This document shows, piece by piece, positions 17,814-44,830 of a stretch of 64,000 nucleotides of DNA. The notes beneath the pieces were generated by a model. It was given only the letters and a program-made list of their open reading frames with translations, was not told where the DNA came from and made no database searches. Numbering within the stretch: the first letter of the stretch is position 1; each line of letters begins with the position of its first letter. Source of the stretch: a bacterium (GTDB lineage Bacteria; Vulcanimicrobiota; Xenobia; Xenobiales; Xenobiaceae); contig JAUNIO010000007.1 of assembly GCA_030535355.1 (NCBI GenBank), positions 15,742-79,741 of the forward strand. Direction: 5' to 3'. The position numbers and the translations under genes are program-made.

Positions 17814-17990
17814 TTCGAGTAATGTTTCCGCACAATAATTTAGACCGTTATCTCTTTAGCTAACCTTTACCCTAGCCGTTAGCTTAGCCATTACGTCAGC
17901 CATTAACTTAGCCATTAAATAAACGCTTGACCAAACATCAGCATAGCCGCTTAATTAGCCATTACGCTTACTTAGCCATTAACTAAACAG

Positions 17991-18216: not shown

Positions 18217-18235
18217 ACTAAACAGCGATTAGCAA

Positions 18236-18783: not shown

Positions 18784-18793
18784 ACAGCGCCTC

Positions 18794-18928
18794 TTAAGCG
18801 GTTAAAGAATGACGGCCTTTTTTGCGGCGGCGGGCCAATACGTTGCGGCCACCCGGGGTAGCCATTCTGGCGAAGAAACCGTGGGTTTTAACGCGGTACA
18901 GTTTCTTGGGTTGGTAAGTGCGTTTCAT
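18794..18928 (-). CDS. rpmH: 50S ribosomal protein L34 (absent from the ORF track because it is under 60 aa)
   Basis: My translation of the minus strand gives [44 protein letters not shown]. That is the canonical L34 sequence. Confidence 0.9.
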
Positions 18929-19218
18929 GGAAAATTCCTCCTAAAGCGGAAAACCTTAATTAAACTTTCTCTTAAACCGGCTTCTGATTACAGCCGGGCG
19001 GCCCATTCAAATAATAAGCCAAAAAAACTGAAATATCATAATCTCAAATGCGCATTTTGTCAACAACTTAAGGTTAGCTGATCGCTAAGTTGACGGCATT
19101 GATATATAGACAAGTTTTACTTTAATATAACATTCCGGCAATAATTTTATATGCGGCGCGTTTGCTATAAATGTCACAGACAACATTGACATTCTGATTT
19201 GGCGAAGGAGGCATTTTT

Positions 19219-28208: not shown

Positions 28209-30116
28209 CTAATCTATCTTTTTGGCGTTGACTGAGGAAAGCGCGGTGGTAGCGGCGGCCTTATCCTGGCCCTGCTTAACCACGACGTTTTCGAACTTCC
28301 AATCGGCTAATTTCTGGTTGTCCTTATCGGGATCGATAGTCTCAAAGGTCACGGTATATTCGCCTTCAGGAAGCGCTATCTCAGCGACTTCGTTGACGTT
28401 GTAGGACATATCTAGCACAGCAGCGGGGTCCTTGTCTTCTTCGCCCTTTCTGTAGAATTTCAGGTTGGACAGAGCGTTTTTGGCCGCGTTCTTAATGGAG
28501 ATCATCCCCCAAGTGCGGCGATCGGGAGCGGGCAAATCCCAAGTGTAGCCTTTGACCCAAATCGGGCGGAAGGTTTTGACATCACTCTCCTTGTCTCTGT
28601 CGGCAGTCACGCGCAGCCAGCTGTAATTGGAGTACTCCAAAAGCCCATCAAAGCTGAGCTTAAATGCGGTCTTGCTGTTGTCGTCGACCCCGGCGACACC
28701 TCTAGGAACGAACCAGACCCAGGCCTGGCGGACAGTCCACTGCGTGCGGCAGTTCTTGGGCCAATACTTGTCCCAATTATCGCTCTTGGAAGGCTTGACG
28801 TTCTTAGAATTGTAGTCGTAATGCGGCTGATTCGTAGAGCTGTCCAGAGTATAGTCGATATCGTCCATGGAATAGCTAGTGCTGCTGTTCACGGTACGGC
28901 TGAAAGAGGCGGAAATATTTCCCAGCGGGGCCTTGGAGCTAGAGCCTCCGCAGATGGAACCAGAAAAGGTATTGCTGATTCCGTTGCTGTATTGGTGAGA
29001 ATTGATAGCATTCTCGGGCACAGGCATCTGGAAGTACTGCGCGCCTTCAATAGGATTCCCGCTGCTGTCGAGCAGGCGTACGGTGGTAGCCATATGATTA
29101 AACCAATAGCCCACCATAAAAACTTCAGAAAGCCATCCTGAAGAGCAGTGCCAGGTCTGCCACATGTTTTGATTGTACGGCGTAATAGCACAGGTTACGG
29201 CGTAATAATCTCCGGCTTTAGCACCGTTGCAGGACTGCATGTAGAGGGGATACACCTTGAAATTGACATCGACGGAACTCGAGGCATTAATCTTATGCTT
29301 GGCCTGGAGCTTATAGCATTTGCCGCATTCCTCGTTCAGCGAAAACGGGAAATTGGCGGTGAGGCTGACGCCGGCGCTGTCGATGTCGGTCACCAAGCTG
29401 TCATAATTATAACCGTCATTGACCGCAGAGGGATCGCTAGAGGCGATCAAGCTCTTTTCGCGATCTCTCTGGTTAAGCCATCTCAAAAGGGGCACCACGC
29501 GTCCGTGATTATAAACATCTATGTCGGTTTTTAGCAAATTATCCTGGGGTTCCCCGGCATCAAAGCCCTGCTCCCCATAAACTGTATACTGTTTATGAGA
29601 ATTGCAGTGCGCGTAAAAGAGCACATCCCCGCTGGACAAGCCCGTAGGACGGCTATCAACAGCCAGTTTTAATGAAGAAGACTGCTGTTCCACATCCGGC
29701 CGGACTATGACGACGACTGCGCCGCGTTCCTTGCTGTTTTGCAGATCAGCGCTGCGCTCATACTCTTCACTAGTGCAAAAGATTACGTCAGCTTCATCGG
29801 CTGCCGCCTGCTTGGGGAAACGCTGGCGCAGAGTCTCCTGCATTCCCTCCGATAGCGCGGAAATATCTCCGAAATACGCGGTGCCCTCGTACACTTCTTC
29901 CGAAGTGGGCTCCACGCTGGCGTCGACGATGGCAGGGCCTTCGGCGACAGCAGAGTCTTCAGCAACAGAACCTTCAGCAGCAGCGGCCTTAACAGGTCCA
30001 CTGCTCCCTACATTATCGCTCTCACTGTCACCGCAAGCGGTGAGACCGGCTGATAAAGCTGCTGCCAAAGACATAACAGCTGCTATCTTGGCGGTATTGC
30101 GAATCAGTTGCTTCAT
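28209..30116 (-). CDS. lipoprotein, paralog A (possible leukocidin/hemolysin-like beta-pore-forming core)
   Basis: I moved the start to MKQLIRN at 30116, which follows GGAGGTG. The lipobox is LSAGLTAC. The protein aligns over almost its full length with the 48761-50719 product. Its central Gly/Ser-rich alternating segment resembles a toxin stem. Confidence 0.8.
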   Translation of the reverse strand: MKQLIRNTAKIAAVMSLAAALSAGLTACGDSESDNVGSSGPVKAAAAEGSVAEDSAVAEGPAIVDASVEPTSEEVYEGTAYFGDISALSEGMQETLRQRFPKQAAADEADVIFCTSEEYERSADLQNSKERGAVVVIVRPDVEQQSSSLKLAVDSRPTGLSSGDVLFYAHCNSHKQYTVYGEQGFDAGEPQDNLLKTDIDVYNHGRVVPLLRWLNQRDREKSLIASSDPSAVNDGYNYDSLVTDIDSAGVSLTANFPFSLNEECGKCYKLQAKHKINASSSVDVNFKVYPLYMQSCNGAKAGDYYAVTCAITPYNQNMWQTWHCSSGWLSEVFMVGYWFNHMATTVRLLDSSGNPIEGAQYFQMPVPENAINSHQYSNGISNTFSGSICGGSSSKAPLGNISASFSRTVNSSTSYSMDDIDYTLDSSTNQPHYDYNSKNVKPSKSDNWDKYWPKNCRTQWTVRQAWVWFVPRGVAGVDDNSKTAFKLSFDGLLEYSNYSWLRVTADRDKESDVKTFRPIWVKGYTWDLPAPDRRTWGMISIKNAAKNALSNLKFYRKGEEDKDPAAVLDMSYNVNEVAEIALPEGEYTVTFETIDPDKDNQKLADWKFENVVVKQGQDKAAATTALSSVNAKKID

Positions 30117-30653
30117 AATATTCACCTCCGCTTCTTCACGGAATAAGTGGCCGCATTTGCCTATTTGCAGACTCAGTACCTGGCCTGCCTGCGTCAGCTT
30201 CTGCCCGCTGCGCTCAGATGCTGCGTTTAGCAGAACTGCTGCAAAGCCAGGGCGACGGAAGATAGTGCAAACGATAGACGGCATAAATCACAGATGTGTC
30301 AGCCCACAGCTGAAATGCCCCTATACACATTCAGCAAAAATTACGAGTTAAACCAAAATAGCAATCAGTCAGCTTACAATCGGAAAATATTGGTCTAATT
30401 TGTTGGCATTATATTAAAAACAAATGCCATAAGCTATACTCGTCTTAATATGCAAGCCGGAATTAGCGCGGATTTGCATATTGTCAGTTACGGGCCTAAG
30501 ATACACCTTATTGAACATTCAGTCAATACTGTTGAATGCGGTGCATCTGAATAAATGACTATGTATTCTTGAACAGATCCTGAAAGCGAAATTCTCAATG
30601 TTTAGCGTTTAAAGAGATTCGCCTTACGGATGCGGACGGTTGACTGGGACTTT

Positions 30654-30821
30654 GTTTTACTTTTTGTCGAAAAGTAAAATTTAAATGAAATAAAAGTAAA
30701 AATACTCTGCAAAAAGTAAAATGAAATATCTAAAAGTAAAATGAATCCTTACACTTTTGTTTAATAAGGCTTTTGTCAGATAATAGTTATTGTTTAAGGA
30801 ATTTGAGCAAAAGTAAAAATG
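30654..30821 (+). promoter_or_regulatory. array of AAAAGTAAAA(T) repeats upstream of and overlapping the start of the AlbA_2 gene
   Basis: Direct copies start near 30670, 30692, 30712 and 30732, about 20-21 nt apart. Another overlaps the ATG at about 30809, and an inverted copy lies at 30654-30665. Confidence 0.5.
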
Positions 30822-32309
30822 ACTTGTGAAGAATTGCTGGAAATATTAGCGCAAATACAAAACTCAAGATGCGAAACGCAAAATCTGGAGATTAAAGCTG
30901 CGGCCCAGGGCTGTCCCACGCGTTTGTATGATACGCTCTCAAGTTTTTCTAATCAGGATGAGGGCGGAATCATTGTGTTTGGCGTTGATGAAAAAGATAA
31001 TTTCCGCGAATGCGGCGTTTACAATCCGCAAGATTTGCAAAAGAAGATCGCTGAGCAATGTCTGCAGATGGAGCCGAGAGTCAGGCCTTTGCTGACTATC
31101 GCTGAAAAAGATGGGCGTTTTTTTGCCGCAGCTGAAATACCTGGCTTAGATGCAGCTGATCGTCCCTGCTATTATCAAGGACGAGGCCGTCTTAAAGGCG
31201 CTTATGTGCGCGTCGGCGACAGTGACGAGCCTATGACTGAATATGAAGTATACGCTTATGAAGCCTTTAAAAGAAATTACCAAGATGATATTCGTCCAGT
31301 TGAGCGAGCTTTGCGTTCGGCTTTGGACCAGGAACTGCTGCGAAGCTACCTGCGCCGTTTACAGGACAGCAAACCCAATTTAAGCTCGCTCGGCGATGCG
31401 GAAATATGCGAGCTTCTAAGCTATACCAAAAACGGAACGCCGACCCTGAGCGCAGTTCTGTTGTTTGGCAAATATCCGCAGGCGTTTTTTCCTCAGCTTT
31501 GTATTACCGCCGTCGTTGTTCCGGGAACACAGCTGGGCGATACGGGAGAACAGGGAGAACGGTTTATAGATAATCGCCGGATCGAAGGCAGCGTTTCTGC
31601 TATGCTGGATCAGACTATGGCTTTTTTGAGCAAAAACATGCGTACCAAGATAATTATTGACGCCATGACCGGCAAGAGAGAAGATCGGCCCGAATATCCT
31701 CTGATTGCTTTACGTGAGATGCTTCTCAACGCCTTGGTGCACAGAGACTACAGCACGCATACCGAAGGGACGCCTATCCGGGTTATTATGTACAGAGATC
31801 GTTTGGAAGTCTGCAGTCCCGGCGGCATTTATGGACGTCTTCAGGTAAAACAGCTGGGGCTGGTGCATCCCAGCACAAGAAATCCCGTGCTGGCCACAGC
31901 TTTCGAAGTGATGGGGCTGACCGAAAACCGTTATTCGGGAATCCCGGCTATGCGCCGGGCGATGGCGGATTTCGGGCTGCCCGAGCCAGTATTCACCGAC
32001 GAACGGGGCAATTTTACGGCCACGTTATACAACGGCCTAACTGCTGAATATACCGCCAGCCCTGAGCTTTCAGAACCAGAGCGAAAATTGCTGTTATTTT
32101 TGCAAACGCCGCGCAGCAGAAAAGAGATCGCGGAACATTTAGGTCTAAGTTCGGTGGCTTATGCGCTGAAAGAATATGCCGGGCCATTATTAGACCAGGG
32201 TCTGATTACCATGACCATGCGCGACAAGCCCAGGAGCCATAAGCAAATGTTTGTGCTGAGCGATTCCGGGAAGAAGCTAGTTAGGGATTTTTTACAAAAC
32301 CGATATTAG
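30819..32309 (+). CDS. AlbA_2 (Schlafen-like) + HATPase_c_4 + C-terminal wHTH protein (RecG-like putative transcriptional regulator)
   Basis: The N-terminal ETQNLEIKAA...GGIIVFGV fits AlbA_2. The central LREMLLNALVHRDYS fits HATPase_c_4. The C-terminal RKEIAEHLGLS looks like an HTH. Confidence 0.7.
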   Translation: MTCEELLEILAQIQNSRCETQNLEIKAAAQGCPTRLYDTLSSFSNQDEGGIIVFGVDEKDNFRECGVYNPQDLQKKIAEQCLQMEPRVRPLLTIAEKDGRFFAAAEIPGLDAADRPCYYQGRGRLKGAYVRVGDSDEPMTEYEVYAYEAFKRNYQDDIRPVERALRSALDQELLRSYLRRLQDSKPNLSSLGDAEICELLSYTKNGTPTLSAVLLFGKYPQAFFPQLCITAVVVPGTQLGDTGEQGERFIDNRRIEGSVSAMLDQTMAFLSKNMRTKIIIDAMTGKREDRPEYPLIALREMLLNALVHRDYSTHTEGTPIRVIMYRDRLEVCSPGGIYGRLQVKQLGLVHPSTRNPVLATAFEVMGLTENRYSGIPAMRRAMADFGLPEPVFTDERGNFTATLYNGLTAEYTASPELSEPERKLLLFLQTPRSRKEIAEHLGLSSVAYALKEYAGPLLDQGLITMTMRDKPRSHKQMFVLSDSGKKLVRDFLQNRY

Positions 32310-33330
32310 CGGGCAAACCGAGCGGCCCTTCACCCAGCAGTTTGCGCAGCAGCTTCCAGGTGTGCCCGTGCTGCATATGCCCGCGGTAACTGGCGACGAC
32401 CTGCCTTATATCAGTAGCTTCCATGGTCCCCGCGGCATAAGCATTCCGCATATAGCGCAGTTTCTTCTTACAGCGCTTTTTCGTGCTCTGCCGCACCTTC
32501 CTAATGATTTTTCCGGACTCAGCCAGATAGAAATGAAAGCCCAGGTAATCGATGCCATTTCGCAACGGAGCGATCTTGGTCTTAGCGTTGAACTCCAACC
32601 CTAGCTTATCCGCCAGCGCGCGCATCTCCCGCAGGCAATAGCGCAGATAGGATTTATCGCGATGGATCAGCACCATATCATCCATGTAACGGGAAAAATA
32701 CGCGATCTGCAGGCGCTCCTTGATCAGCCGATCCATTTCATCCAGATAATACAGAGCGAACCACTGGCTAGTCTGATTGCCCAGGGGCAGCCCCTTGCCC
32801 GGGACAGTCTCGTAACTGTCGATGATTACGTGCAATAGCTGCACAAGCCCAGCTTCCTGGAATATTTGGGAAAGCTTGGCTTTAAGCTTTTCGTGATCGA
32901 TATTGTCGAAGAATTTGCGGATGTCGCACTTGAGAAAATAGCCGTCAGGGCCCTGATGCTTATAGTAATCTGCTAGGAAATGCGTAACCCTATGGATGGC
33001 GAACAGGGTTCCCTTGCCTATGCGGCAGGCGGCATTGTCATAGACAAGCCGCTTATCCAGCTCGGGCGCTATTATTTCGTCGCAGAGGCAGTGCTGCACC
33101 ACCCTGTCGCGGTAATGCAGGGCGCTGATGATGCGGGGCTTGGGATCGAAGACGGGAAACTGATAATATCCCGACAGCCTGTAAGAGCCATTGCGCAGGG
33201 CATCCGCTAAGGTCACGAGATGCCAGGAAAGGTTCATTTCGAACTCAATGATCTCTTTTAGGTCGCGTTTGCCCAGCCGGGCCTTTTTATGCGCCTTGTA
33301 TAGATTGGCAAAGGCGCAAAGTTTATCCAT
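32281..33330 (-). CDS. DGR reverse transcriptase
   Basis: LPLGNQTSQWFALYY matches the DGR-specific (I/L)GxxxSQ motif, and YMDDMVLI is the catalytic YxDD box. VFDPKPRIISALHYRDRVVQHCL is also present. From memory, the protein is colinear with Bordetella phage BPP-1 Brt. Confidence 0.92.
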   Translation of the reverse strand: MDKLCAFANLYKAHKKARLGKRDLKEIIEFEMNLSWHLVTLADALRNGSYRLSGYYQFPVFDPKPRIISALHYRDRVVQHCLCDEIIAPELDKRLVYDNAACRIGKGTLFAIHRVTHFLADYYKHQGPDGYFLKCDIRKFFDNIDHEKLKAKLSQIFQEAGLVQLLHVIIDSYETVPGKGLPLGNQTSQWFALYYLDEMDRLIKERLQIAYFSRYMDDMVLIHRDKSYLRYCLREMRALADKLGLEFNAKTKIAPLRNGIDYLGFHFYLAESGKIIRKVRQSTKKRCKKKLRYMRNAYAAGTMEATDIRQVVASYRGHMQHGHTWKLLRKLLGEGPLGLPANIGFVKNP

Positions 33331-33689
33331 TATCAGCTGCCTGCCTTTCCGCTAAGCTCCATAATTGAATAAGTCCCCTATAATCAACGATATTACCTTA
33401 AACCTTTTTACAATTGCCTCATACAGCGTCACGCCGATCGCCTCTCCACTCCGCTCCTTCAAGCAAAGATATGATATTGCCCGCTTAGGCAATGGCCAGC
33501 TTAGAAAATGTAGAGAGGGGCGGCAGGGGAAATATCCCGAAAGCCCGCAAGCGCAATATGCGCGTGAAAGCTCCTGCCGCCATGTGTTTTCATGGCAGAA
33601 ACCAGCGTCCTGCTCATGAGGGAAGGCAGTTCCTTTGTTCTCCGCGCACCGGTCAGCTGCACCTGCAGACTAACATCACACCAGCGGAG

Positions 33690-33818
33690 CAATGCGGGAC
33701 GAACACAGCCAGAATCATTATTAACGTTGTTGCCATTAGTATTGATGTCGCCATCGTTATTTACGTTCGCGGCGTTATTACTATTATTGCCGGGGGAGCG
33801 GAGCCACCACCAACAAGC
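33690..33818 (-). repeat. DGR template repeat (TR)
   Basis: Matches the VR at 34419-34546. Read on the minus strand it encodes ACWWWLRSPGNNSNNAANVNNDGDINTNGNNVNNDSGCVRPA, with 13 AAY Asn codons. It lies between avd and the RT gene. Confidence 0.9.
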
Positions 33819-33853
33819 TCGCCCATACAACTGCCTCCCCATTCAAACCCGCT

Positions 33854-34258
33854 TTACGCAGGCTTAAATCTCTTTCTGTCAGAACTTATCCAAGCTCCGG
33901 TCAGGCGTTCCACATCTGTGGTCAGCCTAGAAATCATCTCAAACTGCTTCATGGTGAGCGCTTTCGACTCCATCGCCAGCTGAGAGACATAAGCCAAAAT
34001 TTTAGCCTCCGAGATGGACTTATGCTGAAATTCCAAGCGTATTCCCCAGCTGGCCAAGTTTTCCCGCGTGACAAACGTATCGTTAGCGCGATAAAGATTC
34101 TCCAATATATCCAGCGCCAGGTTCTGAAGCCTGCTCACAAAGGTAAACCTAAACTGCTTGGGAGATTTGGCCGTAGCGTTGATCACATAGCGGCACAAAT
34201 CCTTAGCTTTGGTGATAACCGTCAGTTCTGATTGATATTCTTTAGCCATATTAATCAA
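33854..34258 (-). CDS. avd: Avd-like four-helix-bundle accessory variability determinant
   Basis: 134-aa helical protein with the basic C-terminus GAWISSDRKRFKP. It lies between the target gene and the TR, as in canonical DGRs. Confidence 0.8.
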   Translation of the reverse strand: MINMAKEYQSELTVITKAKDLCRYVINATAKSPKQFRFTFVSRLQNLALDILENLYRANDTFVTRENLASWGIRLEFQHKSISEAKILAYVSQLAMESKALTMKQFEMISRLTTDVERLTGAWISSDRKRFKPA

Positions 34259-34418
34259 CTTGTTCCGCGCGGCATACCGCCGCGCGGGATGGACACCTAG
34301 ATCAGCCGAAATCTTTAGCTCTAATACGCCATTTAACAGACAAGCTTCTGCTTACGCCCATCTTGAACACAAAAAGTAAAAAAATTAAAAAAGATTAAAA
34401 GAATTAAAATTTTAGATA

Positions 34419-34546
34419 CAAAGCGGGACGAACACAGCCAGAATCATCATAAACGCAGCTGCCATTAGTATGGATGTCGCCATCGCAATCTAAGGACGCG
34501 GCGAGATACTACTATAGCCGGGGGAGCGGAGCCACCACCAACAAGC
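34419..34546 (-). repeat. DGR variable repeat (VR) at the 3' end of the target gene
   Basis: Compared with the TR it has 16 substitutions at TR adenines, one G-to-T change and a 1-nt deletion at an A. The last ~25 nt (GATTCTGGCTGTGTTCGTCCCGC) are identical, like an IMH (initiation of mutagenic homing) element. Confidence 0.9.
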
Positions 34547-35413
34547 GCCGTTATCCTTGTAATTTGCTATTCTCGCCTTACCTGAAGCAAACAGCGAACC
34601 CGCTTCATCAACGGACAGCAGGAAAAGCGTATCCTCACAGCCAACATCGCTAAGCTTCGTTTTCAGGATCCTGGTCCGATCTTTAGCGGAGAAATGCTTC
34701 TTTAAGAATTCACCGTTCAAGTATTGCCGCAAGCTACACCTGGCCCAGCTGTTGGTGCTCTGATCCGTATGAAACGCCCGTTGATCGACGCAATCCTTGG
34801 TGATGAGCAACGCGTTATCGCCAGATTTTCTCAGGACCAGCCAATCGAAGTCCCCGAAATGCACAATGCTGCCGACTTGAGCGCTTTTCATCACGGTCCG
34901 ATAGGCTTGTTCCTCTTTCGCTTCCTTCTCCTTCTCGACATCTTTCCTGCGCCGCTCTTCCTCAGCGCTGGCTCGGCTCTTTAATTCTGCCTCAAATTCC
35001 TGAAGCTCCAACTCGCTCAGCTTATTCTTGGTAGCCGCTAAAAGCACGCAATTCTCGAGGACGATACCCTTATCCTTAAGACTGATATTCTTCTCAGCTA
35101 TAGATAGGGCGAGGACGGGCCGGGGAAACTCCCCCAGCTCCAGCCCCACATATTTTACATTGCCCACCTGGTAGGGCGCGGTAAAGCGATGACCTATAAG
35201 ATACACGATCAGCTTTTCCCGCCTCTCTTCGGCAGCGCTTTCGAGTATGTCGTAAAGGTCTTCCTGGGACAAAGCAATAGAATCTATCTTCTTGAGGATT
35301 TCCGCATTATCCGTAATCCGGCGCAAACGCCCGAGTTTATTATCCTTTTCCGCAGCCAGAGGGTCGCTAATTTCCATTACGCTCTTAGATACATTGTTTT
35401 CCATTCTCGACAT
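34490..35413 (-). CDS. DGR target protein, C-type-lectin/FGE-like (WWLRSPG-type) variable domain; apparently truncated by a frameshift in the VR
   Basis: The C-terminus ...NGACWWWLRSPGYSSISPRP* overlaps the VR. The N-terminus has no signal peptide. A Lys/Glu-rich coiled-coil stretch lies mid-protein. Confidence 0.85.
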   Translation of the reverse strand: MSRMENNVSKSVMEISDPLAAEKDNKLGRLRRITDNAEILKKIDSIALSQEDLYDILESAAEERREKLIVYLIGHRFTAPYQVGNVKYVGLELGEFPRPVLALSIAEKNISLKDKGIVLENCVLLAATKNKLSELELQEFEAELKSRASAEEERRRKDVEKEKEAKEEQAYRTVMKSAQVGSIVHFGDFDWLVLRKSGDNALLITKDCVDQRAFHTDQSTNSWARCSLRQYLNGEFLKKHFSAKDRTRILKTKLSDVGCEDTLFLLSVDEAGSLFASGKARIANYKDNGACWWWLRSPGYSSISPRP

Positions 35414-35472: not shown

Positions 35473-35670
35473 TCAGCGCGGATCGCTGACCGTATCCACA
35501 TAGCCTTCACTCATCTTCCCTAAAATAAACTGAGCCTGCTCTACAGTCATATCCGGCGCTCTGTTGGGCGAATTCTCGGCCTGAGTATCTTCCGCGTCGC
35601 CGGGCCGCACGGCAGATAAGGTCCTAGCCACATCGGCGCTGGCAGCTCCTGAGCGAGGCGTGGCACGCAA
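35473..35670 (-). CDS. small hypothetical protein
   Basis: 65-aa ORF on the same strand, between the operon and the DGR target. No motifs. Confidence 0.3.
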   Translation of the reverse strand: MRATPRSGAASADVARTLSAVRPGDAEDTQAENSPNRAPDMTVEQAQFILGKMSEGYVDTVSDPR

Positions 35671-35753
35671 GCCTGCGGCCCAGGCCGCGTGCGCTTTAAG
35701 AGGAAGGGCAGGGGCGCGTCCGGCTTTTTTCTCCGGTTAATCTCCGGTTTAGA

Positions 35754-36455
35754 CTACGGTTTAGACTCCGCAGACGGCTGCTTCTCTGGACGCTGAGGCG
35801 CGGTACTCGGAGACTCCGGCGGCGGAGCAATCGCTTTGGCCACAGAAGAGGGCTGGCGCGGCACCATCACCTTCGCAGCGGAAGAGGACTGACGCAGCGC
35901 AGGCGTTAGCCCCTTATCCAAGCTGCCGTATATTTTCAACCCCAGCCACCCCTTAGCGTTCAGGGACGTAACGGTCACGAGGGCATCGTTCTTGACGTCC
36001 TTGAGGCGCAGTCCCGGCCCAAACGGCTGCTCCTGCAGATCCAGAAAAGTCTGGAAATCCTCCTGTTTCCAAGGAATATCCTCATACTGGTTTCGCGAGG
36101 CCGCACTAGCCTGCCAAAGCTCATCCAGAATTCCCGTCATTTCAATAACTAGCGCAGGATCGCTGCTATCAGAGAGCAGACAGACACTCCTCCCCTCCAA
36201 AGAGGGCAGCTGCCCGCTCTTCCCCTGGTACGTATGCCCCTGCGGAAACTCCTGACTGTTTAAGCTCATGGCGTTTTTCCACTGCTGCAGATAGCCTTCC
36301 ATCTGTCCTGGGGCCTGGCTGGGGTCCTGACATTCCACCCCGTCTAAGCGCTTCAGATCAAATACCGTCGGATCTTCCCGCACTATATACGCCCAAACTT
36401 TATGATCGGAGAGGGCAAACAAATACCTGACAACCGTCACCTTCCGCGCACTCAT
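35754..36455 (-). CDS. hypothetical protein with a Pro/Ser-rich tail
   Basis: 233-aa ORF. Its start overlaps the upstream gene's stop by 4 nt (ATGA), suggesting translational coupling. Confidence 0.6.
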   Translation of the reverse strand: MSARKVTVVRYLFALSDHKVWAYIVREDPTVFDLKRLDGVECQDPSQAPGQMEGYLQQWKNAMSLNSQEFPQGHTYQGKSGQLPSLEGRSVCLLSDSSDPALVIEMTGILDELWQASAASRNQYEDIPWKQEDFQTFLDLQEQPFGPGLRLKDVKNDALVTVTSLNAKGWLGLKIYGSLDKGLTPALRQSSSAAKVMVPRQPSSVAKAIAPPPESPSTAPQRPEKQPSAESKP

Positions 36456-36940
36456 AGCAGATCATCGTCCTCCATCATTCTGCAGTTTTGCATCTCCCTG
36501 CGCCCAGCGGCAAACTCCCCCGCCAAGCTCTGCCACTGGCGGTTATGTTCGCGCTTCCAGTCGCCGCACCGCCGCTTCACCTGCTCTCTATGCTCCCGGC
36601 CTTCCCGCTCCAGCCTGCCGATCCGGGCCGCGGCCACCCGCATAGCTAAGGATTCCGCTCCGTCCACAGCCGCCGGGACTTCCCCTTTAGGCAGGCGCAA
36701 GGACTGCGACTCCAGCTTTTGCCGGGGTGACAGGCTCTGCTGGGCCTCCACACTGTTTTTATAACGCTTCAGCCCGTCGTTCAAGCGTTCGAAGCTCGCT
36801 TTATGTTCTTCTCCAGCTTTAGAGTGCAATTTTGCAGCAGCCTCGGCCTCCACTTGTTCGGTCACGGTTTTCTTTATTTTGGCACCCGACGAAGCTATCT
36901 CCCAGCTCTTCTTGTCCATTTCCTCCCAGCTCATCTGCAT
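36452..36940 (-). CDS. hypothetical helical, charged protein
   Basis: 162-aa ORF, coupled by a 4-nt overlap to the downstream gene. Confidence 0.55.
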   Translation of the reverse strand: MQMSWEEMDKKSWEIASSGAKIKKTVTEQVEAEAAAKLHSKAGEEHKASFERLNDGLKRYKNSVEAQQSLSPRQKLESQSLRLPKGEVPAAVDGAESLAMRVAAARIGRLEREGREHREQVKRRCGDWKREHNRQWQSLAGEFAAGRREMQNCRMMEDDDLL

Positions 36941-37044
36941 TTCCCCTGTCAGTTTTTCCGTAAATTTCTACGCCAACTTCCACGATCGAGGTCTATTATC
37001 AAGTGCTCACGTCAGCTTCTCCTATCAGCTTATCCTGTAAGCGG

Positions 37045-37959
37045 CTAGAGGCGCTCCGCCGCGCCCTGCTCGCGCTGCTCTGCCAAAGCTCCCTCGCGCA
37101 GCATCTTTTTATCCTCGGGAGCCATGCCGTAAGCATCGAAGATCATGGGGTCATCGCGCAGCAGCTTCTCGCGCTGCTCCTGCAGCTCCCCACGGTACAT
37201 CTTAGCCACAGCCTGGTGCGACTTATCCAAACTGGCCGCCCGCCAGTCGCGCAGAAGCTCCCGCAGCTGCACGGGATCGCGATCGGGGCAGTGCTTCTGC
37301 AGGGCCGCCAGCAGAGCATCTCTAAGACGCAGCATATCGTTCTCCGGCAGCAGGCCCTGCAGGTACTGCTTGATTTCCACCCTGCTGTAGCCGGACTGTT
37401 TAAAGGCTTCAATGACCGCCAGCTGCTCCTCCGGCTCCATGCGGCACAGCGCGGCCTGCTCCATAAAGGTATCCGGCAGCACGATCCCCTCGCGCTCACC
37501 GATCTCCTCTTTCAGAACGGTCACCCCCACAGCCTGGTAATTCACCTTTTCGGGCAGGTCCATCGCCTCAGTCTCCACTATCGGCAGTTTCTCTTTCAGG
37601 TAACCGTAGTAATCGGCAAAGGAGGGAAAATCTTTCCTTTCCATCCAGTCGGTCTTTTTGACGGCCTCGGCCACGCGGTAGCCGATCTCCTCCGCCACTT
37701 CTTGCTTAACGGTAATGCCCAGGGACTTCGCCAAGAAGGTGACCGTTTCCGAAACAAACTTCTCGGCCACCAGACCTAAAATCTGCCCAACGACAGGTCC
37801 CAGCGGCCCGCCCACCATGACGGCGGACAGCGCTCCTGTCAAAATGGAAGCCCCAGCGGATATGGCTCTTCCCACGCCGCTGAAAATGGCCTTACCGACG
37901 CTGCAGATACTGCTGACGCAGCTGCCGACAAGGCTGCATAAACCACTCAAGAAACCCAT
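37045..37959 (-). CDS. glycine-zipper membrane protein with a helical cytoplasmic domain
   Basis: The N-terminal ~70 aa (MGFLSGLCSLVGSCVSSICSVGKAIFSGVGRAISAGASILTGALSAVMVGGPLGPVVGQILGLV) carry repeated small-xxx-small motifs. Confidence 0.6.
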   Translation of the reverse strand: MGFLSGLCSLVGSCVSSICSVGKAIFSGVGRAISAGASILTGALSAVMVGGPLGPVVGQILGLVAEKFVSETVTFLAKSLGITVKQEVAEEIGYRVAEAVKKTDWMERKDFPSFADYYGYLKEKLPIVETEAMDLPEKVNYQAVGVTVLKEEIGEREGIVLPDTFMEQAALCRMEPEEQLAVIEAFKQSGYSRVEIKQYLQGLLPENDMLRLRDALLAALQKHCPDRDPVQLRELLRDWRAASLDKSHQAVAKMYRGELQEQREKLLRDDPMIFDAYGMAPEDKKMLREGALAEQREQGAAERL

Positions 37960-38167
37960 AATGTTACCTCCTCTGCTCCCTTACTTTAGAAATGTCATTT
38001 ATTAACAATGTCATTTTGTTAATACTTCGCGAACAAGTTATCGTTTACACCAGCTTCCGCGCCAGCGCAGCTTTGCTCAGCTCAGAAAGTCCTTGAGCAG
38101 GATTGTGACTCGCTGTATTTGCTGCCCAGCCAGCGTCAGAATACTTAATTGAACCAGCCAGGTTTGC

Positions 38168-41100
38168 TCATTGAGTTCCTGCCCGCCAGGCCTGAGCTTC
38201 TAAATTGAAAAGCAAATCAAGCCTGGTCTTCTCGTCGAGTTCCAGCTCGCCCAGCCAATAGCGAAGCATCGTTTCCAGAGCCTCTGCTTTGCTGGCGCAG
38301 GTACGGCCATAGATATTCCCATAAATATAGTGCACCAGCAGGGCAAAATCCGCACCTTCCAGCTTAAGTTCCGAACGGACAAAGCCCAAATGTTCCTTAA
38401 ACGCTCCTTCCGGATTGTCGGCAGGTTTTTCGGAGTCTGTGATCACAGCCTGGCGATAGAGCTGCAGCAAACGCCTGTCCCGCATTAGCTGCAAGTATTT
38501 GCGCACTCTTTTCGGGGTAATTTCACCCGGGGAGAAATGCTCCAGTCCCGGCAGCACGCCCAGCTTACAGTTTTGGGGCTGAGCGTAATAAACTTCGGCC
38601 ACCTCCCGCACCTGCTCATCATCGGCCTCGAGCAGCTCTCCCGCATCGTTGTCGATCTTGACCTGCACGGCCTTGGGCCAGTCCTGGGTCAGCACGATGG
38701 CGTAGCCGGCGCGCAGATTGGAAAGGAAAGCTTTTTGGTCATCCTCCAAAGCCATAGTATTGCCGATAGCTTCCTTGTCGTCCTGAGCGAAGAGCCTGTG
38801 CACGATTTTGGTATTGGTGTTTTTCAGAACCTCCGGCGTCATCTTATCCGGGATTTGATCTACGATAATCAGAGACTCTCCGTATTTGCGCACCTCCGCC
38901 AGCATATTGGCGAAGACCTCGACGCCCTGGCGCTTGCTGGGGCTGTCGCCGGGCACAAAGCGGCTGAACAGGCGGTGGGCTTCCTCCACCAGGGTAATGT
39001 GCTGAAAGCGCCGGCCCTCTTTGCGTCTTGCGTAGTATTCCAGCTTCACGGCCTGAAGCAGATTGGTCATGATAAAGCCCATAATCATGGATTTTTCCGC
39101 GCCATTGCGGATCTCTTCCAGTTCAATAACCACCTGGCGGTGAATCAAATCGCGGAAATTCACCGAGCGCGGCGTGTTCAGCATCAGGCCCTTAGCTCCC
39201 ACCATCAGGCTGTTGATACGGGCGCGCAGAGAACCCAGGTACTCGGCTTGCAGGCGCTCGCCGAACTCCTGTTCTATGGTGACCTCCTCCACAGCCTTTT
39301 TGAAATCCGTTAGGGTAGGGAAAGCGTAGCTGCCCGGGGCGAAGGGGTCCTCCTTCTTCCCATTCACGAACCACTCGTCCGTGCTGACATTCCAGCCCTT
39401 ATACTCGTAAGCGCGATAGACGCCAGCCTCCAAAATTTGGGGAATAGCCGCTTCCATCTCAAAGGCCGCTTCCATGGTGGCCTTGATCATATCCGCCCGG
39501 GCCGACACCGGCTCGCCCGGAAACAGCTCAAAGGGATTGAGGTAAAAGGGCGCGGTATCCTGTTGGCCAGGCGTGAAATAGGTCAGCTGAGGGAAACGGG
39601 GCTGGCCTTGGTCATCTTTCTGGCCGTAGAGCGTGCGATACTCTGTCTTGACAGGTTCGATGACCAGAAAAGGTACGCCGCATTCGCGCAGGATTTTCTG
39701 ACAGGTCGTGGTCTTGCCGCTGCCCGTAACCCCGGCCACAAAAGTGTGCTTGTCGAGAACCCTTCTATCCAAGGCGATCGGCACCTGGCGGCGCACCGTG
39801 CCGCACTGCACCAGATGGCCCAGCTCCAAGCGATCTTCCTGCGGCTGCGGCACGTTCAGGCCGAATTCCACCTCCCGGCGCAGGCCCAGGCCGATAACAT
39901 CTCTTTGGGGCAGGCCCGTCAGAATTCCCAGCTCCTCGGCTGAAAGCCAGCTGCCGCAAAAGACCTTCTGATTCCCAGAAGTTTTCTGAGAGAGCGCCGC
40001 CATACCCAGGCGAACCAATTCCCCCTCCCGGCGCTTAGCATGAGGTATCTGCAGATTCTGCAGCGCTTCATAGCAGCGTTTGTGCTTGGGAGAGTCTCGC
40101 TCGATCTCGGCGAAGGATAAAGCCGAACGGTTGCCTTGCTGGCTGCTGTAGAGCGACATCGCCGTATTGGCCAGCCGGTACATGACCGGACGGTCGTCGC
40201 TGAAGAGAAATGCGCAGGTCAGGAAAAGCCCTTTGCCCCGCCCCCGATCCAGGCGAGGCAGCAGCACATCGTCCAGATATTTGCTCCAGCCCGAAGCTTC
40301 GCGGTTGTCACTGCGCAGCTGCACGGTTAAATTAACGCTGCGGCTGGAGCTGGAAGTGTCCGAACGCGTTTTGTGGTGCGCATAGGTGGTGCTGAAGCTG
40401 TCATCCCGGCTGCTGCCCGTCTGGGAGCCGCTGCTGCTGGATTGGCTGCTGCCATCCGTAGTGCTGTAAGAGTCGCTGTACTGGCGCTGCTCACTGCTGC
40501 TGGTAGAATAATTTTTCCGTCCATCATGCCCAGCGCTGTAATTTTCGGAATCACTCTCCGATTGGGTGTTCGAGCTACCGCCAGAAGACTTGTTATTCGA
40601 TGTGCTCTTCGACGAAGTCGAGGAATTGTGCTGGCCATATTCCTCGCTCGTATTGCTGCCCGCTGACGCCTGGACCTGGTTGGTGCGCGTATGGCGCACC
40701 TCCTCATCAGTGCGGTTGCTGCTCTCGCTCTCGTGCTGCGATTCCGTTTGGTGCACGCCGTGCGAGGACTGCCGGGCATGGCTGATGCTGCCGCTCGCAC
40801 TGTTGCTGTCTGAGCTGCCCTCTGTGAATTGCCGCGTCAGATTGGCCAGCGGGGCCAGCAAGTCGAAAACCCGCAGCAGGTCGGCCTCGAGAGCATCCAT
40901 TTCCGCTTCGGTATAGGGCTGGGCCAGCACCACAAAGCCAAAGCTGCTGCCCCCCATCACGTCGATCAGGCGGTCCACGCCCTGGAAATCTCCCTGAGCC
41001 TGATCGGGATCGGCCCCGGGCACTCCGGTCAGCACGCCGAAATATTTAGCACTGCGCATACGCTCCAGCACCTCAGCCTTCTCCGCCGCCCGGTTTTGCG

Positions 41101-41563
41101 AGCCCAGCTCGGTCACCTGGCTGCCCCGAAAATTGCCCTCTATGCTCGGCTTAAGGAGCTTGCTGACTAAATCGTACTCGTTGAGCTTGAATTCGGAGGG
41201 GTTATTTTCGGTGAGATCGCGGCCCACCCCGAAGTAAAAATCCACTTTGCCCTGGCCGTCGCCGAGGATTATGTAGATAAAATTCATGGCCTCGCAGCGC
41301 CGGAAGGCGCCCAGGATATTCTCCAGGGCCTCGCGGCGCGGGGCCTTTTCCTCGAACATGATCTCATCTATATGGCAGAGAAAAAACTGATCCGCGGCCA
41401 GACTGCGGGGCAACGGCAGCCATTCCGTTTCCCCCGCCAGCAGGGAACGGTGAGCGGGAGCGCGCAAATATTTGAGCAATTCCCGGGACTTCTCATTCTC
41501 AAGATCGGCCTTCTCCAGGTCCTGACCATCGGCTCCGCGCTGTTCAGCTCTCATCTCGTCCAT
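38168..41563 (-). CDS. HerA/FtsK-superfamily P-loop ATPase with an N-terminal unknown domain and a Ser-rich disordered insert
   Basis: Walker A is VAGVTGSGKTTT and the DEAH-like Walker B is ITLVEEAHRLF. A SLIIVDQIPDK motif is also present. Residues ~245-415 are low-complexity Ser/Thr/Asn/Gln. Confidence 0.8.
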   Translation of the reverse strand: MDEMRAEQRGADGQDLEKADLENEKSRELLKYLRAPAHRSLLAGETEWLPLPRSLAADQFFLCHIDEIMFEEKAPRREALENILGAFRRCEAMNFIYIILGDGQGKVDFYFGVGRDLTENNPSEFKLNEYDLVSKLLKPSIEGNFRGSQVTELGSQNRAAEKAEVLERMRSAKYFGVLTGVPGADPDQAQGDFQGVDRLIDVMGGSSFGFVVLAQPYTEAEMDALEADLLRVFDLLAPLANLTRQFTEGSSDSNSASGSISHARQSSHGVHQTESQHESESSNRTDEEVRHTRTNQVQASAGSNTSEEYGQHNSSTSSKSTSNNKSSGGSSNTQSESDSENYSAGHDGRKNYSTSSSEQRQYSDSYSTTDGSSQSSSSGSQTGSSRDDSFSTTYAHHKTRSDTSSSSRSVNLTVQLRSDNREASGWSKYLDDVLLPRLDRGRGKGLFLTCAFLFSDDRPVMYRLANTAMSLYSSQQGNRSALSFAEIERDSPKHKRCYEALQNLQIPHAKRREGELVRLGMAALSQKTSGNQKVFCGSWLSAEELGILTGLPQRDVIGLGLRREVEFGLNVPQPQEDRLELGHLVQCGTVRRQVPIALDRRVLDKHTFVAGVTGSGKTTTCQKILRECGVPFLVIEPVKTEYRTLYGQKDDQGQPRFPQLTYFTPGQQDTAPFYLNPFELFPGEPVSARADMIKATMEAAFEMEAAIPQILEAGVYRAYEYKGWNVSTDEWFVNGKKEDPFAPGSYAFPTLTDFKKAVEEVTIEQEFGERLQAEYLGSLRARINSLMVGAKGLMLNTPRSVNFRDLIHRQVVIELEEIRNGAEKSMIMGFIMTNLLQAVKLEYYARRKEGRRFQHITLVEEAHRLFSRFVPGDSPSKRQGVEVFANMLAEVRKYGESLIIVDQIPDKMTPEVLKNTNTKIVHRLFAQDDKEAIGNTMALEDDQKAFLSNLRAGYAIVLTQDWPKAVQVKIDNDAGELLEADDEQVREVAEVYYAQPQNCKLGVLPGLEHFSPGEITPKRVRKYLQLMRDRRLLQLYRQAVITDSEKPADNPEGAFKEHLGFVRSELKLEGADFALLVHYIYGNIYGRTCASKAEALETMLRYWLGELELDEKTRLDLLFNLEAQAWRAGTQ

Positions 41564-41642
41564 CTAGCCCTCCTGCTCTTATCCTTCTCCGCTTATCCTT
41601 AGCTCAACCTCAGCTTAACCTTGCTTACCCCACTGGGAACGC

Positions 41643-44600
41643 TCACTTCAGCTCCTGGCGGTGGGTTTTGCGCTGCACTTCGGGCTTAGCAAAATCTTCC
41701 GGCCGGCCCACGGCATACTCGATAGTGTTCGGATCTACTTTTCTGATATAGATGGCTGTGTCTGGGGAATCGCTAACCTCATCGTCATCCAAAGAGCAGA
41801 ACAGGCAAGAGACCGCTCTTTTCGGCAGCACACCCGGCTTCGCCGCCCGCGGCTCCGAGGTATAATAGAGGTAGAAACAGTTCTCATTGGCATAATCGTA
41901 TTTATTCCACACTCCATAACCGCCATTGGGAGGGATAACGGTATTAAATTTATCCTCGTCGTCGAGGTTGCCGAGATACCAAATAAAGGGAGCTTCTCCG
42001 TCCGCGCGGTTCTCATCGTCGATGCGCACGTCTTTGCCGCTGCGACGGCAGCGCAGCAAACCGAAGGCCACCCCGGTCTTACCGGTGCACGTGCGGTCCA
42101 GCTCAATGGCCAGGCGCTCTGCCTCAGCGGCAAGCGCGGCCTCCGTTTCCTTCTTAGCCTGGTCCGCTCCCGGCTGCTGATCGGAAGCGGCCTCCTCCTG
42201 CATACCCAGAGGCAAATGCAGGGCGAACATCACTTTGGTATTGGCCTCTTGACCGCGTTCTTCCAGGAGACGCTGCTGCCCGTTTTTCTCTATGGCCTCG
42301 ATCTTGCGCTGAAATAGCTTCTTAACCACCGGGCTTTTGCAGGAATTGCCCGCCAGCAAAATATGGATTGGCAGCTGTTTCAGACGGTCTGGGTAATTCT
42401 TTGGGCCAAATACCTGAAACAGCATATCGAAAAAGTTATCCACCCCGACTTCAATGCGGCGTTCGACGAGCTTTTCCAAGGCGTCGACTTTGATCACCAG
42501 CTTGACGGAGACGGGACCCTGCTGCTCTCCACCCAAACTGTACAGATTAATACTCGTATTTCCTTTGCTGAACTTGTTTTGATACCCCTCATGTTTTTCC
42601 CAGATGGGACGCATAAGCTCGGCCAGCGCCCGCCGGTTCATATAGGCCTCCTGCGGTGCCTGATCGGTTTTGTACACCAGCCGCTCCGCGCCCGCGAAAG
42701 GCTCCGCATCCGGCGGCAGCACAAAAGGAATAAACATAGAGCGCATCACCTGCAGGTTATCCTTATAGACCTCATAAGCCATGAGGTTCAGTAAATTTTC
42801 CCCGCCTAAGTTAACATCGCCGCTGGCCCCAAACTGATGCAGGATAAATTTGCCAAAGCGCCTATCCTCGGGTTTCTCCTCGACACCGAAATCGAAATCG
42901 GTCGTGCCCCCGCCGAAATCGAAGATCGCATAGGAGACGCGCTGCCCGCTCTCCTTGGGCTGCAGTCCCAACTCTTTCAAAGCGCAGGCGGCATAAGCGG
43001 CAGGCTCGCTGACGAGCGAATCGACGAAAAAGTATTTCATGACTTTATCATCGCTAAGAATGGAGGGCGGCAAAGATTTTCTCAGGCCGCGCTCAAAGCT
43101 GGCCTTCAGGCGCCCACACACATCTTTGCCGTAATTGACGGGAAACGACAAATTATAGCGCAGAAAAATGCCGTGCATCATGTTGTTGATGTACAGGCCC
43201 AAATAATAGGCGTAAACCTCGATAGGGTCGAAATCACCATTCTCGAGTTCCAGATAAGGCTTCAGCTCCAAGTCGCGCCCTTGGCCGTCCTCTAAAAGCA
43301 GGCGGCGTTTCCTATCGTTGGCCCACTGCTTCAGCTCGCTGAATATCGAGTATCCGCCTATGTCTTTCAGATCATTATAGGCTTGATGGGAAACCGTCAG
43401 TTGCTCCCATTCGGTCAAAGGACGCCCCTCGCGGGCCTCGTAGGCGCGGCGGAAGCCCTGCAGATCGCGCAGTTCGATCACCGTGGGGTTTTCAAAATCC
43501 TCCAGCACGGGCGCGGCAGCGTAATTGCCCTTGCCCACGCGCAGCAGACGCTCGTCCGTGCCGCGCGCACAGGCTACCACCGTGCTCTTGGTGCCAAAGT
43601 CAATGGCAACCTCGCCATTTTGGATTATATCATTTTGGGGAGGGCGCGCGAAAACCGGCTGCTCCAGCTGAATAGCGGAGTACCCCGCCTCATCGCGCTG
43701 CTTTAACCCTTCAAAGAGTTCCCAATGTCCCTTGTTGCGGTCGGTCAGCTGATCTTCAGAGTATGGAGTCAGATCGGCCCTGCGCTTATCGGAGTTAAGG
43801 TAATAATCGAAGATGAGCTTAACGTCGCTGCCCGAGAGGACGGCGTCGGTATTAGCCTGATAATCGTACCTGACGCCATAGACCGAACGCTTGATCCTGC
43901 CCGCCCGGAAATTCGCTAAAAGAGCGCCTATTTTCAGAGAAATGCCGCCTTTAGCCTCTTCTAGGTAAGGCAAAAATACTTTTAAATCCTCAGCATACGG
44001 CGTTTCCAGCATACGCCGGAACGCGTCTTCCTGCTCGGCGCTCAAGCCCTCGGGTATGAGTTTCCAGCACAAAAGCTCCCAAATGGTTTCGGGATAGCTC
44101 AAGGGCAGGGCATTGTTCCCCCGCAGCCGGCAGACAGCCATAAGAGGAAACTGCACGCTCTGGCCCACGGCCGCTAATCTCCCCGCCTCTTGGGCGTTGC
44201 CGTTATTGAAGCTTAAAAGCCGCCCGCTCTCTGTTTTTAAGTCGTTTTTCAAACCTCCAAAAGAGCCGCTAAAGAGATAGCTTTTATAGGTGCTTCCCGC
44301 TATTTGCAAATATCCGGCTTCATTTAAATAAGGATTGCCATTGCCCTGGCAAAACGTCCGCATTCCCTCCTGAGCGGTCACCGGCTCAAACCGCAGCCCG
44401 CCGCAGGCCAGTTCAGTATAAGCGCCCACCTCCGCAGCGTAATGGCCGCAGCCCAGCCGTAAGCTTACTCCCGCCTTCTCCCATTGAGGATAGAGGCCCG
44501 CCACCTGGCGGTCCAGCCACAGCGGATCGCTTTTCATCTTTATAAAGCGCCTGTCGCAGGGTTCGCGCAGCAGGTTTAACAGCTCGGTGAACTCGCGCCC

Positions 44601-44708
44601 CAGCTGGCCCAAACCGTCATCAGCCTTTTTAATTATGCTGCTTTCTATTTTCGTTTTGGGCAGTTTTACGCTTTTCACGGGAATGGGAGTAACTGTACAC
44701 AAATCCAT
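41643..44708 (-). CDS. Hsp70/actin-fold ATPase-like protein with large N- and C-terminal extensions and no canonical substrate-binding domain
   Basis: Hsp70 nucleotide-binding motifs are present: AIDFGTKSTVVA (phosphate-1), SEPAAYAA, IFDFGGGTTDFDFG (phosphate-2) and ILLAGNSCKSPVV (adenosine). Confidence 0.8.
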   Translation of the reverse strand: MDLCTVTPIPVKSVKLPKTKIESSIIKKADDGLGQLGREFTELLNLLREPCDRRFIKMKSDPLWLDRQVAGLYPQWEKAGVSLRLGCGHYAAEVGAYTELACGGLRFEPVTAQEGMRTFCQGNGNPYLNEAGYLQIAGSTYKSYLFSGSFGGLKNDLKTESGRLLSFNNGNAQEAGRLAAVGQSVQFPLMAVCRLRGNNALPLSYPETIWELLCWKLIPEGLSAEQEDAFRRMLETPYAEDLKVFLPYLEEAKGGISLKIGALLANFRAGRIKRSVYGVRYDYQANTDAVLSGSDVKLIFDYYLNSDKRRADLTPYSEDQLTDRNKGHWELFEGLKQRDEAGYSAIQLEQPVFARPPQNDIIQNGEVAIDFGTKSTVVACARGTDERLLRVGKGNYAAAPVLEDFENPTVIELRDLQGFRRAYEAREGRPLTEWEQLTVSHQAYNDLKDIGGYSIFSELKQWANDRKRRLLLEDGQGRDLELKPYLELENGDFDPIEVYAYYLGLYINNMMHGIFLRYNLSFPVNYGKDVCGRLKASFERGLRKSLPPSILSDDKVMKYFFVDSLVSEPAAYAACALKELGLQPKESGQRVSYAIFDFGGGTTDFDFGVEEKPEDRRFGKFILHQFGASGDVNLGGENLLNLMAYEVYKDNLQVMRSMFIPFVLPPDAEPFAGAERLVYKTDQAPQEAYMNRRALAELMRPIWEKHEGYQNKFSKGNTSINLYSLGGEQQGPVSVKLVIKVDALEKLVERRIEVGVDNFFDMLFQVFGPKNYPDRLKQLPIHILLAGNSCKSPVVKKLFQRKIEAIEKNGQQRLLEERGQEANTKVMFALHLPLGMQEEAASDQQPGADQAKKETEAALAAEAERLAIELDRTCTGKTGVAFGLLRCRRSGKDVRIDDENRADGEAPFIWYLGNLDDEDKFNTVIPPNGGYGVWNKYDYANENCFYLYYTSEPRAAKPGVLPKRAVSCLFCSLDDDEVSDSPDTAIYIRKVDPNTIEYAVGRPEDFAKPEVQRKTHRQELK

Positions 44709-44830
44709 ATCTCTATACCTCCGGCCTCCAGCAGCCTGCTGCAGCTAGGGCAGCCAGGCAGAAGCGGCCTCTGAACTAACAAATATGACCAACGATTATT
44801 ACCAACAAATATTAAACTTCTGTCCTGTCC

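Follow-up and report, generated by a model that had tools for sequence, protein, structure and literature searches.

A 64 kb stretch of a bacterial genome (Xenobiaceae; assembly GCA_030535355.1, contig JAUNIO010000007.1, positions 15,742–79,741; the whole stretch analysed is called the window) carries what we take, with a probability of about 0.9, to be a chromosomal diversity-generating retroelement (DGR), ordered on the minus strand as target gene, avd, template repeat (TR) and reverse transcriptase (RT). This reading is supported by the closest match of the RT, by adenine-specific mismatches between the TR and a variable repeat (VR), by a probable Avd-family accessory gene, by the domain of the target protein and by related loci elsewhere. 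A first-pass annotation had called the element a complete DGR in canonical order. The order is confirmed, with the same layout in 25 of the 33 closest RT relatives, and completeness holds for the cassette but fails for the target, whose reading frame is broken inside the VR.

Adenine-specific divergence of the repeats

A computed local alignment of the two minus-strand copies extends over 130 columns and places the TR at 33690–33820 (ACWWWLRSPGNNSNNAANVNNDGDINTNGNNVNNDSGCVRPAL in frame) and the VR at 34419–34548. Seventeen substitutions from TR to VR replace an adenine (seven to T, six to G, four to C), and the single non-adenine substitution is a G-to-T change at TR 33764/VR 34493. Adenine accounts for 35 of the 131 TR bases (27%) and receives 17 of the 18 substitutions, a bias with a binomial tail (≥17/18 on A) of P = 2.4e-9. 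By eye, the first-pass annotation had counted 16 adenine substitutions, one G-to-T change and one single-base deletion. All of these are recovered by the computed alignment within the intervals it had used, together with a seventeenth adenine substitution at the 5′ edge (33819/34547); tallied by TR base, the mismatches are concentrated on A rather than spread evenly. Its 13 asparagine codons of AAY type in the TR were likewise counted again (8 AAT, 5 AAC), and 32 of the 34 in-frame TR adenines occupy codon positions 1 and 2. The deletion leaves the VR one base short between 34508 and 34507, opposite the AA dinucleotide at TR 33778–33779 (TR AGT AAT AAC versus VR AGT -AT CTC). A repeat finder returns the same pair, broken in two at this indel, and no further VR-like copy of the TR was found within the 64 kb window.

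Of the non-adenine positions of the TR, 1/96 is changed in the VR, which suggests that, in evolutionary terms, the TR was copied into the VR recently, and that the last homing event was recent relative to the ~25% divergence between lineages.

Reverse transcriptase and Avd

The RT (32281–33330, minus strand) is an intact protein of 349 aa that matches Pfam RVT_1 at 6e-21. In a phmmer search of all PDB sequences its best match is bRT from the DGR in Bordetella phage BPP-1 (8ub7_A, E = 3.9e-45, 157.8 bits, residues 2–328), followed by a group II intron RT (1e-12) and retron RTs (1.2e-12 or weaker). Placement in the retron or group II class had been named beforehand as the outcome that would speak against a DGR; the search favours bRT instead by ~33 orders of magnitude. 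Both motifs picked out from the sequence by the first-pass annotation, LPLGNQTSQ and YMDD, are present in the protein, residues 183–189 (LGNQTSQ) aligning with IGSLTSQ of bRT and YMDD with its YMDD. The SQ dipeptide, within [I/L/V]GxxxSQ of RT motif 4, is a DGR RT signature (PMC3521204). Arg66 and Leu183 align with bRT Arg74 and Ile181, which are reported to promote adenine mutagenesis (PMC7826257). Generic models, namely group II RT/maturase (4.8e-29) and Drt3a (1.5e-22) of NCBIfam and the RT/retron models of PADLOC, match far below their cutoffs. Taken together, motifs and matches place the RT with the DGR RTs and with neither the retron nor the group II intron class.

The small gene between target and TR (33854–34249, minus strand) encodes 131 aa from its ATG, the open reading frame (ORF) being listed from a TTG at 34258. 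Its product matches NCBIfam DivGenRetAVD at E = 2.4e-12 over profile positions 1–103 of 104, with 47 bits against a curated cutoff of 80, and Pfam bAvd at 8e-8 with 33 bits against a cutoff of 40. Each of the 14 homologues that were aligned from related DGR loci also matches DivGenRetAVD; homologues occupy the same place in related loci and were found by tblastn in 40 RT-related loci. A single-sequence AlphaFold model is all-helical but of low confidence (predicted local distance difference test, pLDDT, of 58), and with this model Foldseek returned 2rld, 8ub7_B and 4dwl at E 0.1–1 only, none significant. Nothing relevant was retrieved from PDB sequences by single-sequence or 14-member-profile search, and the exact protein from the ATG is absent from the assembly index searched. 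The gene had been annotated as an Avd-like four-helix bundle, of which the family is supported by DivGenRetAVD and the 14 relatives, while for the fold there is the low-confidence helical model. That it encodes a divergent Avd is supported but not proven by these profile matches.

A frameshift within the variable repeat of the target

The target gene has the VR at its 3′ end, but the one-base deletion closes the reading frame inside it. As now read, the target (34490–35413, minus strand) is a protein of 307 aa ending ...SPGYSSISPRP at a premature TAG (34490–34492), five codons after the frameshift. The remainder (34404–34489) is out of frame and in the TR frame reads ...LAASLDCDGDIHTNGSCVYDDSGCVRPALYLKF to its stop. 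The first-pass annotation had listed the single-base deletion without this consequence for the target ORF. About 28 residues are lost, the ...VRPALYLKF end included. The four closest target orthologues (P0002–P0005; 317–332 aa, 64–71% identity) are all in frame and 4/4 have the C-terminus SG(S/C)VRPALYLKF, so the allele in the window is a truncation.

The target matches Pfam DUF6273 (PF19789) at E = 1.9e-16 (60.8 bits, cutoff 23.5) over residues 199–301 and profile positions 2–138 of 172, the rest of the profile falling in the frameshifted tail. The VR maps to the C-terminal end of this domain, in agreement with PMC11792537, and the WWLRSPG...VRPAL signature is present in the target family. 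DUF6273, a C-type-lectin-like domain, has already been described among DGR targets, with the VR located C-terminally (PMC11792537, PMC10743442). For orthologue P0002 (70% identical to the target), AlphaFold models the C-terminal domain, residues 150–331, with a pLDDT above 90. The best Foldseek match of this model in the PDB is the T. ramosa IgA peptidase 9qa6 (E = 2.7e-7), presumably through the N-terminal domain that its authors describe as C-type-lectin-like (PMC12237041). The snake C-type lectins 3ubu, 1bj3 and 3wwk reach E 1–9 only, and Mtd and TvpA are absent among the Foldseek matches. Profile and model together point to a DUF6273/C-type-lectin-like fold with the VR at its end. In the P0002 model the truncation strips the last three beta-strands of the domain, and the present target allele is for this reason most likely a null allele. 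By eye, the target shows neither a recognisable signal peptide nor a membrane segment.

The same deletion is present in a separately assembled Logan contig, L001 (SRR24915812), which is identical across the VR; window and L001 show three clustered differences in 9 kb, none of them in the VR. The deletion is therefore not peculiar to a single assembly. Among 372 surveyed DGRs, TR/VR length differences occurred in 25 and were frameshifting in 11, 74% of indels adjoined AAC in the TR and were put down to RT slippage, and 23% of DGRs had non-adenine substitutions (PMC5758913). RT slippage in DGRs is also discussed in PMC12875486. Since such indels and substitutions are listed in the survey, the non-canonical TR/VR features of the window fit a known minority pattern, and the deletion probably arose by RT slippage in the last homing event.

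Elements flanking the repeats

The initiation of mutagenic homing (IMH)-like element (34392–34435, minus strand) consists of a GC-rich part shared with the TR, GTGTTCGTCCCGC, followed by a VR-only AT-rich part, TTTGTATCTAAAATTTTAATTCTTTTAATCT. On the VR side the shared GATTCTGGCTGTGTTCGTCCCGC / GTGTTCGTCCCGC gives way to the VR-specific TTTGTATCTRAAATTTTAATTCTTTTAATCT, and the TR flank is unrelated to the VR flank after CCCGCATTG. By sequence, the flanks appear to form the expected IMH / IMH* arrangement. The element is conserved in five lineages with one purine difference, while the upstream coding sequence diverges. An invariant stretch of ~25 nt had earlier been likened to an IMH. Its invariance holds (TR and VR are identical across 25 nt, 33694–33718), but it equals only the shared GC-rich half, the VR-specific half lying further downstream at 34392–34418.

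Within about the first 60 nt, the VRs of the clade are trailed by 4–6 copies of (A)ATC(T) at 7–8 nt spacing (L003–L035; e.g. L009:5104–5160, L025:4932–4990), an array that extends across the stop codon of the target up to small GC hairpins with flanking AATC. In the window the array is degenerate (34392–34418). Over 19 loci, ATC counts are 93 in VR flanks and 22 in TR flanks, and the array may represent the VR-specific half of the IMH. We know of no description of such a periodic array after DGR VRs.

Between VR and avd lies a GC hairpin, CCGCGCGGC-GGTAT-GCCGCGCGG (34265–34287, minus strand), which begins 131 nt after the end of TR/VR homology. It had been reported as an 8-bp inverted repeat and folds as a 9-bp all-GC stem with a 5-nt GGTAT loop. 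The hairpin is identical in the four lineages whose contigs reach it, where the coding flanks are only ~75% identical. Hairpins of phage DGRs have a 7–10 bp stem and a 4-nt GRNA loop 4–34 bp downstream of the VR (PMC3240598). The relatives of the window element carry one or two GC hairpins of 6–8 bp with GTAA, GAAA or GTA loops, mostly 35–170 nt downstream of the VR, which shows that the clade as a whole departs from the phage spacing. As a canonical terminator the window hairpin was rejected, given that it has no T-run, and a consensus promoter and terminator scan gave nothing above shuffled expectation.

The TR–RT spacer (33331–33689, minus strand; 359 nt) is the presumed 3′ part of the DGR RNA. 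In an alignment of 14 related DGRs it contains a conserved structured core, in the window at about 33590–33669, with three helices that have 83.9% of cells paired versus 37–54% with slid partners and a covariation score of 0.434 versus 0.175 or less in the slid controls, a comparison that is somewhat lenient because the three-helix structure was derived from the same spacer sequences. RNAalifold's own consensus is weak (-4 kcal/mol), and the three-helix structure was specified manually and then tested with the controls. The window spacer retains all three helices, the third hairpin being longer. An alternative helix GGGAG/CTCTC, which overlaps helix 3, is not supported by the window's own sequence. 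Rfam detects no DGR RNA, group II intron or retron msr/msd RNA at the locus with permissive E-values or in the window at gathering thresholds.

Relatives and sister lineages

An RT scan of GTDB species representatives gave 80 loci, of which the 33 closest were examined for TR/VR pairs. The best RT relatives are 55–64% identical and come from gut, rumen and similar Clostridia-type metagenome-assembled genomes (MAGs). A simple self-BLAST screen finds an adenine-biased repeat pair in the shared layout noted above, with the VR about 650–800 nt upstream of the TR and the TR about 200–360 nt upstream of the RT; 24 of 30 TR/VR pairs among the relatives are gapless. Across species, the VRs of target orthologues differ mainly at positions that are A in the window TR.

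Two sister lineages, L083 (GCA_024712465.1) and L084 (SRR21912368), have the same neighbourhood and a target orthologue, and both are without window 34264–32529, which comprises avd, the TR and the first ~270 RT codons. The junction comes directly after the conserved GC hairpin (L083:1399–1401, L084:1464–1466; window 34264 joined to 32529), and a 75-aa C-terminal remnant of the RT remains after it. Window 32308–28184 is additionally missing from both. Their orphan VRs differ mutually, mostly where the window TR has A, either through diversification after the deletion or because the VR alleles are older than the deletion. In a third lineage, L109, the start of avd is retained after the hairpin, the target is in frame and the cassette is intact at least to the avd start. 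The N-terminal 175 residues of the target and three upstream genes (304, 162 and about 300 aa) are confined to this small lineage group; the avd/TR/RT cassette and the DUF6273 domain are, by contrast, widely shared.

Contig L002 starts at window 33818, the TR boundary, and contig L108 ends 12 nt after the target stop. Breaks at these places, in two independent short-read contigs, are what the TR/VR repeat would produce in assembly graphs, and they limit the VR alleles recoverable from public assemblies.

Genomic neighbourhood

The window is chromosomal, with genes for arginine decarboxylase, adenosine deaminase, subtilase and peptidases. PHROGs identifies no phage structural genes in the flanks, and base composition reveals no obvious island. 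The RT relatives in IMG/VR are at most 43% identical, and hence there is no evidence of a phage-borne element. Homology to the annotated contig L083 places rpmH (L34), rnpA, yidD and yidC at window ~17150–19075. This gene set commonly adjoins the replication origin, and the DGR lies ~15 kb from it.

A minus-strand gene cluster for uncharacterised proteins ends with the DGR target; its part upstream of the target spans 35754–46111 and encodes proteins of 426 aa (coiled coil), 1021, 1131, 304 (glycine-rich hydrophobic N-terminus), 162 and about 327 aa. A HerA/FtsK-type ATPase domain (DUF87) is present in the 1131-aa protein, with CedD-like and PADLOC mad8-like matches below cutoffs; for the 304-, 162-, 327-, 1021- and 426-aa proteins, Pfam, NCBIfam, PHROGs and PADLOC indicate no function. 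In L108, the last three cluster genes keep their synteny with the target. The target's immediate upstream neighbour is a single gene of 327 aa in L001, has a 296-aa orthologue in L108 with the shared C-terminus ...EQAxFIxGKMxEGxVDTVxDPR, and in the window is disrupted at 35741–35756 (minus strand) and split into ORFs of 233 aa and 65 aa (35754–36455 and 35473–35670, minus strand). Its lesions are GAG-to-TAG, C-to-A and a one-base deletion, within 16 nt of a GAGTCTAAACCG (ESKP) tandem repeat.

On the other side of the cassette, a plus-strand gene (30819–32309) is convergent with the RT gene and overlaps its 3′ end by 29 nt. Its 496-aa product has domains of the Schlafen AlbA_2, HATPase_c_4 and, at the C-terminus, Fic-like type and weakly matches PADLOC models of pAgo-associated proteins. 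The adjoining ORF of 691 aa (28209–30284, minus strand) contains an internal Met, after which comes a lipoprotein-like signal (…LSAGLTACGDS), and is assigned to no family by Pfam, PHROGs, NCBIfam or PADLOC. Both genes are absent from L083 and L084.

Discussion

Our results describe a chromosomal DGR whose cassette, judged by its reading frames and cis elements, looks functional and may still be active. By analogy with BPP-1, the avd–TR–RT transcript would be bound by an RT–Avd complex at the structured spacer and the TR would be reverse transcribed with random incorporation opposite adenines. Guided by the IMH-like element and the hairpin, the cDNA would then take the place of the VR, and such a replacement would recode up to 13 asparagine (AAY) codons on the ligand-binding face of the target. 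The one-base deletion would be a product of RT slippage at the AAT-AAC context of the TR. As neither the cassette nor any cis element is damaged, the target frame could be regained in another round of homing.

Several observations weigh against this account. The Avd matches lie below curated cutoffs, the searches gave no solved-structure match for Avd, and the hairpin, though its stem fits, is outside the BPP-1-type spacing and loop rule. The VR is identical in L001, the only other assembly covering it, and pattern scans for further VR alleles returned zero hits, both in JGI metagenomes (one scan with the VR flanks around a gap of variable length, one with the VR 3′ flank) and in IMG/VR. A non-adenine substitution together with a frameshift would be consistent, too, with decay since the last homing event, and both the disrupted upstream gene and the loss of the cassette in L083 and L084 are compatible with decay. 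The locus might accordingly be a DGR by descent that is already inactive, its VR frozen and starting to decay and the locus heading for cassette loss, a reading that we regard as possible but rather unlikely. It would draw together the non-adenine substitution and frameshift of the VR, the identity of the VR in two assemblies, the nonsense codon and one-base deletion that the upstream gene has acquired in the window relative to L001, and the removal of avd, TR and the first ~270 RT codons in both sister lineages. Yet no lesions are present in RT, avd, TR, spacer helices, IMH-like flank or hairpin, and 1/96 non-adenine positions differ between TR and VR. The deletion, moreover, coincides with the very AAT-AAC context at which homing is expected to suffer RT slippage (PMC5758913), and consequently need not be later decay.

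That the deletion is instead an assembly or sequencing artefact and the target intact is very improbable. Diversifying VRs can assemble poorly, as the breaks of contigs L002 and L108 at the repeat illustrate, but the deletion is found both in the window and in the separately assembled L001, which has three differences elsewhere in 9 kb, and no long homopolymer occurs at its site. The alternative of a retron, group II intron or defence-type RT beside a chance or duplicated gene fragment is effectively refuted. The generic RT models that would favour such an origin (group II at 4.8e-29, Drt3a at 1.5e-22, PADLOC) do not come near their curated cutoffs, bRT leads the full-length matches by about 33 orders of magnitude, the mismatches are adenine-specific (P = 2.4e-9), no group II intron or retron msr/msd RNA was found by Rfam at the locus or in the window, and relatives share the TR/VR architecture.

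More speculative extensions of the DGR reading, which we consider doubtful, are that the element doubles as a reversible on/off switch or that its clade has a target-recognition module unlike that of BPP-1. As a switch, slippage at AAY runs would write frameshifted null target alleles that later homing would erase; if true, the null allele in two samples, followed by a nonsense mutation in an operon partner, would reflect selection for the OFF state. The module would comprise the 7–8-nt periodic (A)ATC(T) array directly after the VR and GC hairpins about 65–130 nt away.

The chromosomal DGR of the window closely resembles the prototype, the mtd-avd-TR-brt element of Bordetella phage BPP-1. The two share gene order, an RT homologous over its full length with SQ, YMDD and the equivalent of bRT Arg74 kept, an accessory gene that in the window is probably of the Avd family, adenine-specific TR-to-VR differences and a VR at the C-terminus of a C-type-lectin-fold domain. 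In both, a GC-rich shared segment precedes a VR-specific segment (IMH versus IMH*), a GC inverted repeat lies downstream and a structured spacer RNA separates TR from RT. The window element differs in being chromosomal rather than phage-borne and in its target, a DUF6273 protein instead of the tail-fibre protein Mtd. Its hairpin stands 131 nt from the VR with a 5-nt loop, compared with 4–34 bp and a 4-nt GRNA loop for the BPP-1 type (PMC3240598), its spacer has 359 nt and its VR is out of frame. DUF6273 DGRs of gut Bacillota and their prophages, as in Faecalibacterium prophages (PMC11792537) and 'tentaclin' phages (PMC10743442), have the same target family, C-terminal VR and WWLRSPG...VRPAL signature, and RT and Avd of the window are 55–64% identical to those of Clostridia MAG contigs of the same layout. 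Unlike in these systems, the N-terminal 175 residues of the target and its operon are lineage-restricted, no phage genes flank the element and identity to the closest IMG/VR RTs does not exceed 43%. One non-adenine substitution and a frameshifting indel adjoining AAC also ally the window with the non-canonical DGRs of Wu et al. 2018 (PMC5758913), from which it differs in that the frameshift gives an early stop rather than an alternative C-terminus and that four in-frame orthologues of the target are at hand.

As a DGR the element adds little, having a standard architecture and a standard target family already described in gut Bacillota. The details worth recording are the frameshifted VR, the hairpin-bounded cassette deletion and the ATC array with distant hairpins. 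Its value lies in a natural-history series in which one locus is found in three states among close relatives: an intact cassette with an in-frame target in the L109 lineage, at least to the start of avd; an intact cassette whose VR is out of frame through a deletion at an AAT-AAC slippage site, in the window and L001; and an orphan VR in L083 and L084, where a deletion with its junction precisely at the GC hairpin has removed avd, the TR and the greater part of the RT. The periodic ATC array and distant hairpins could refine the rules of DGR target-site recognition outside the BPP-1 model, and the series bears on the rate at which homing generates null alleles, on their repair by homing and on the routes by which cassettes are lost.

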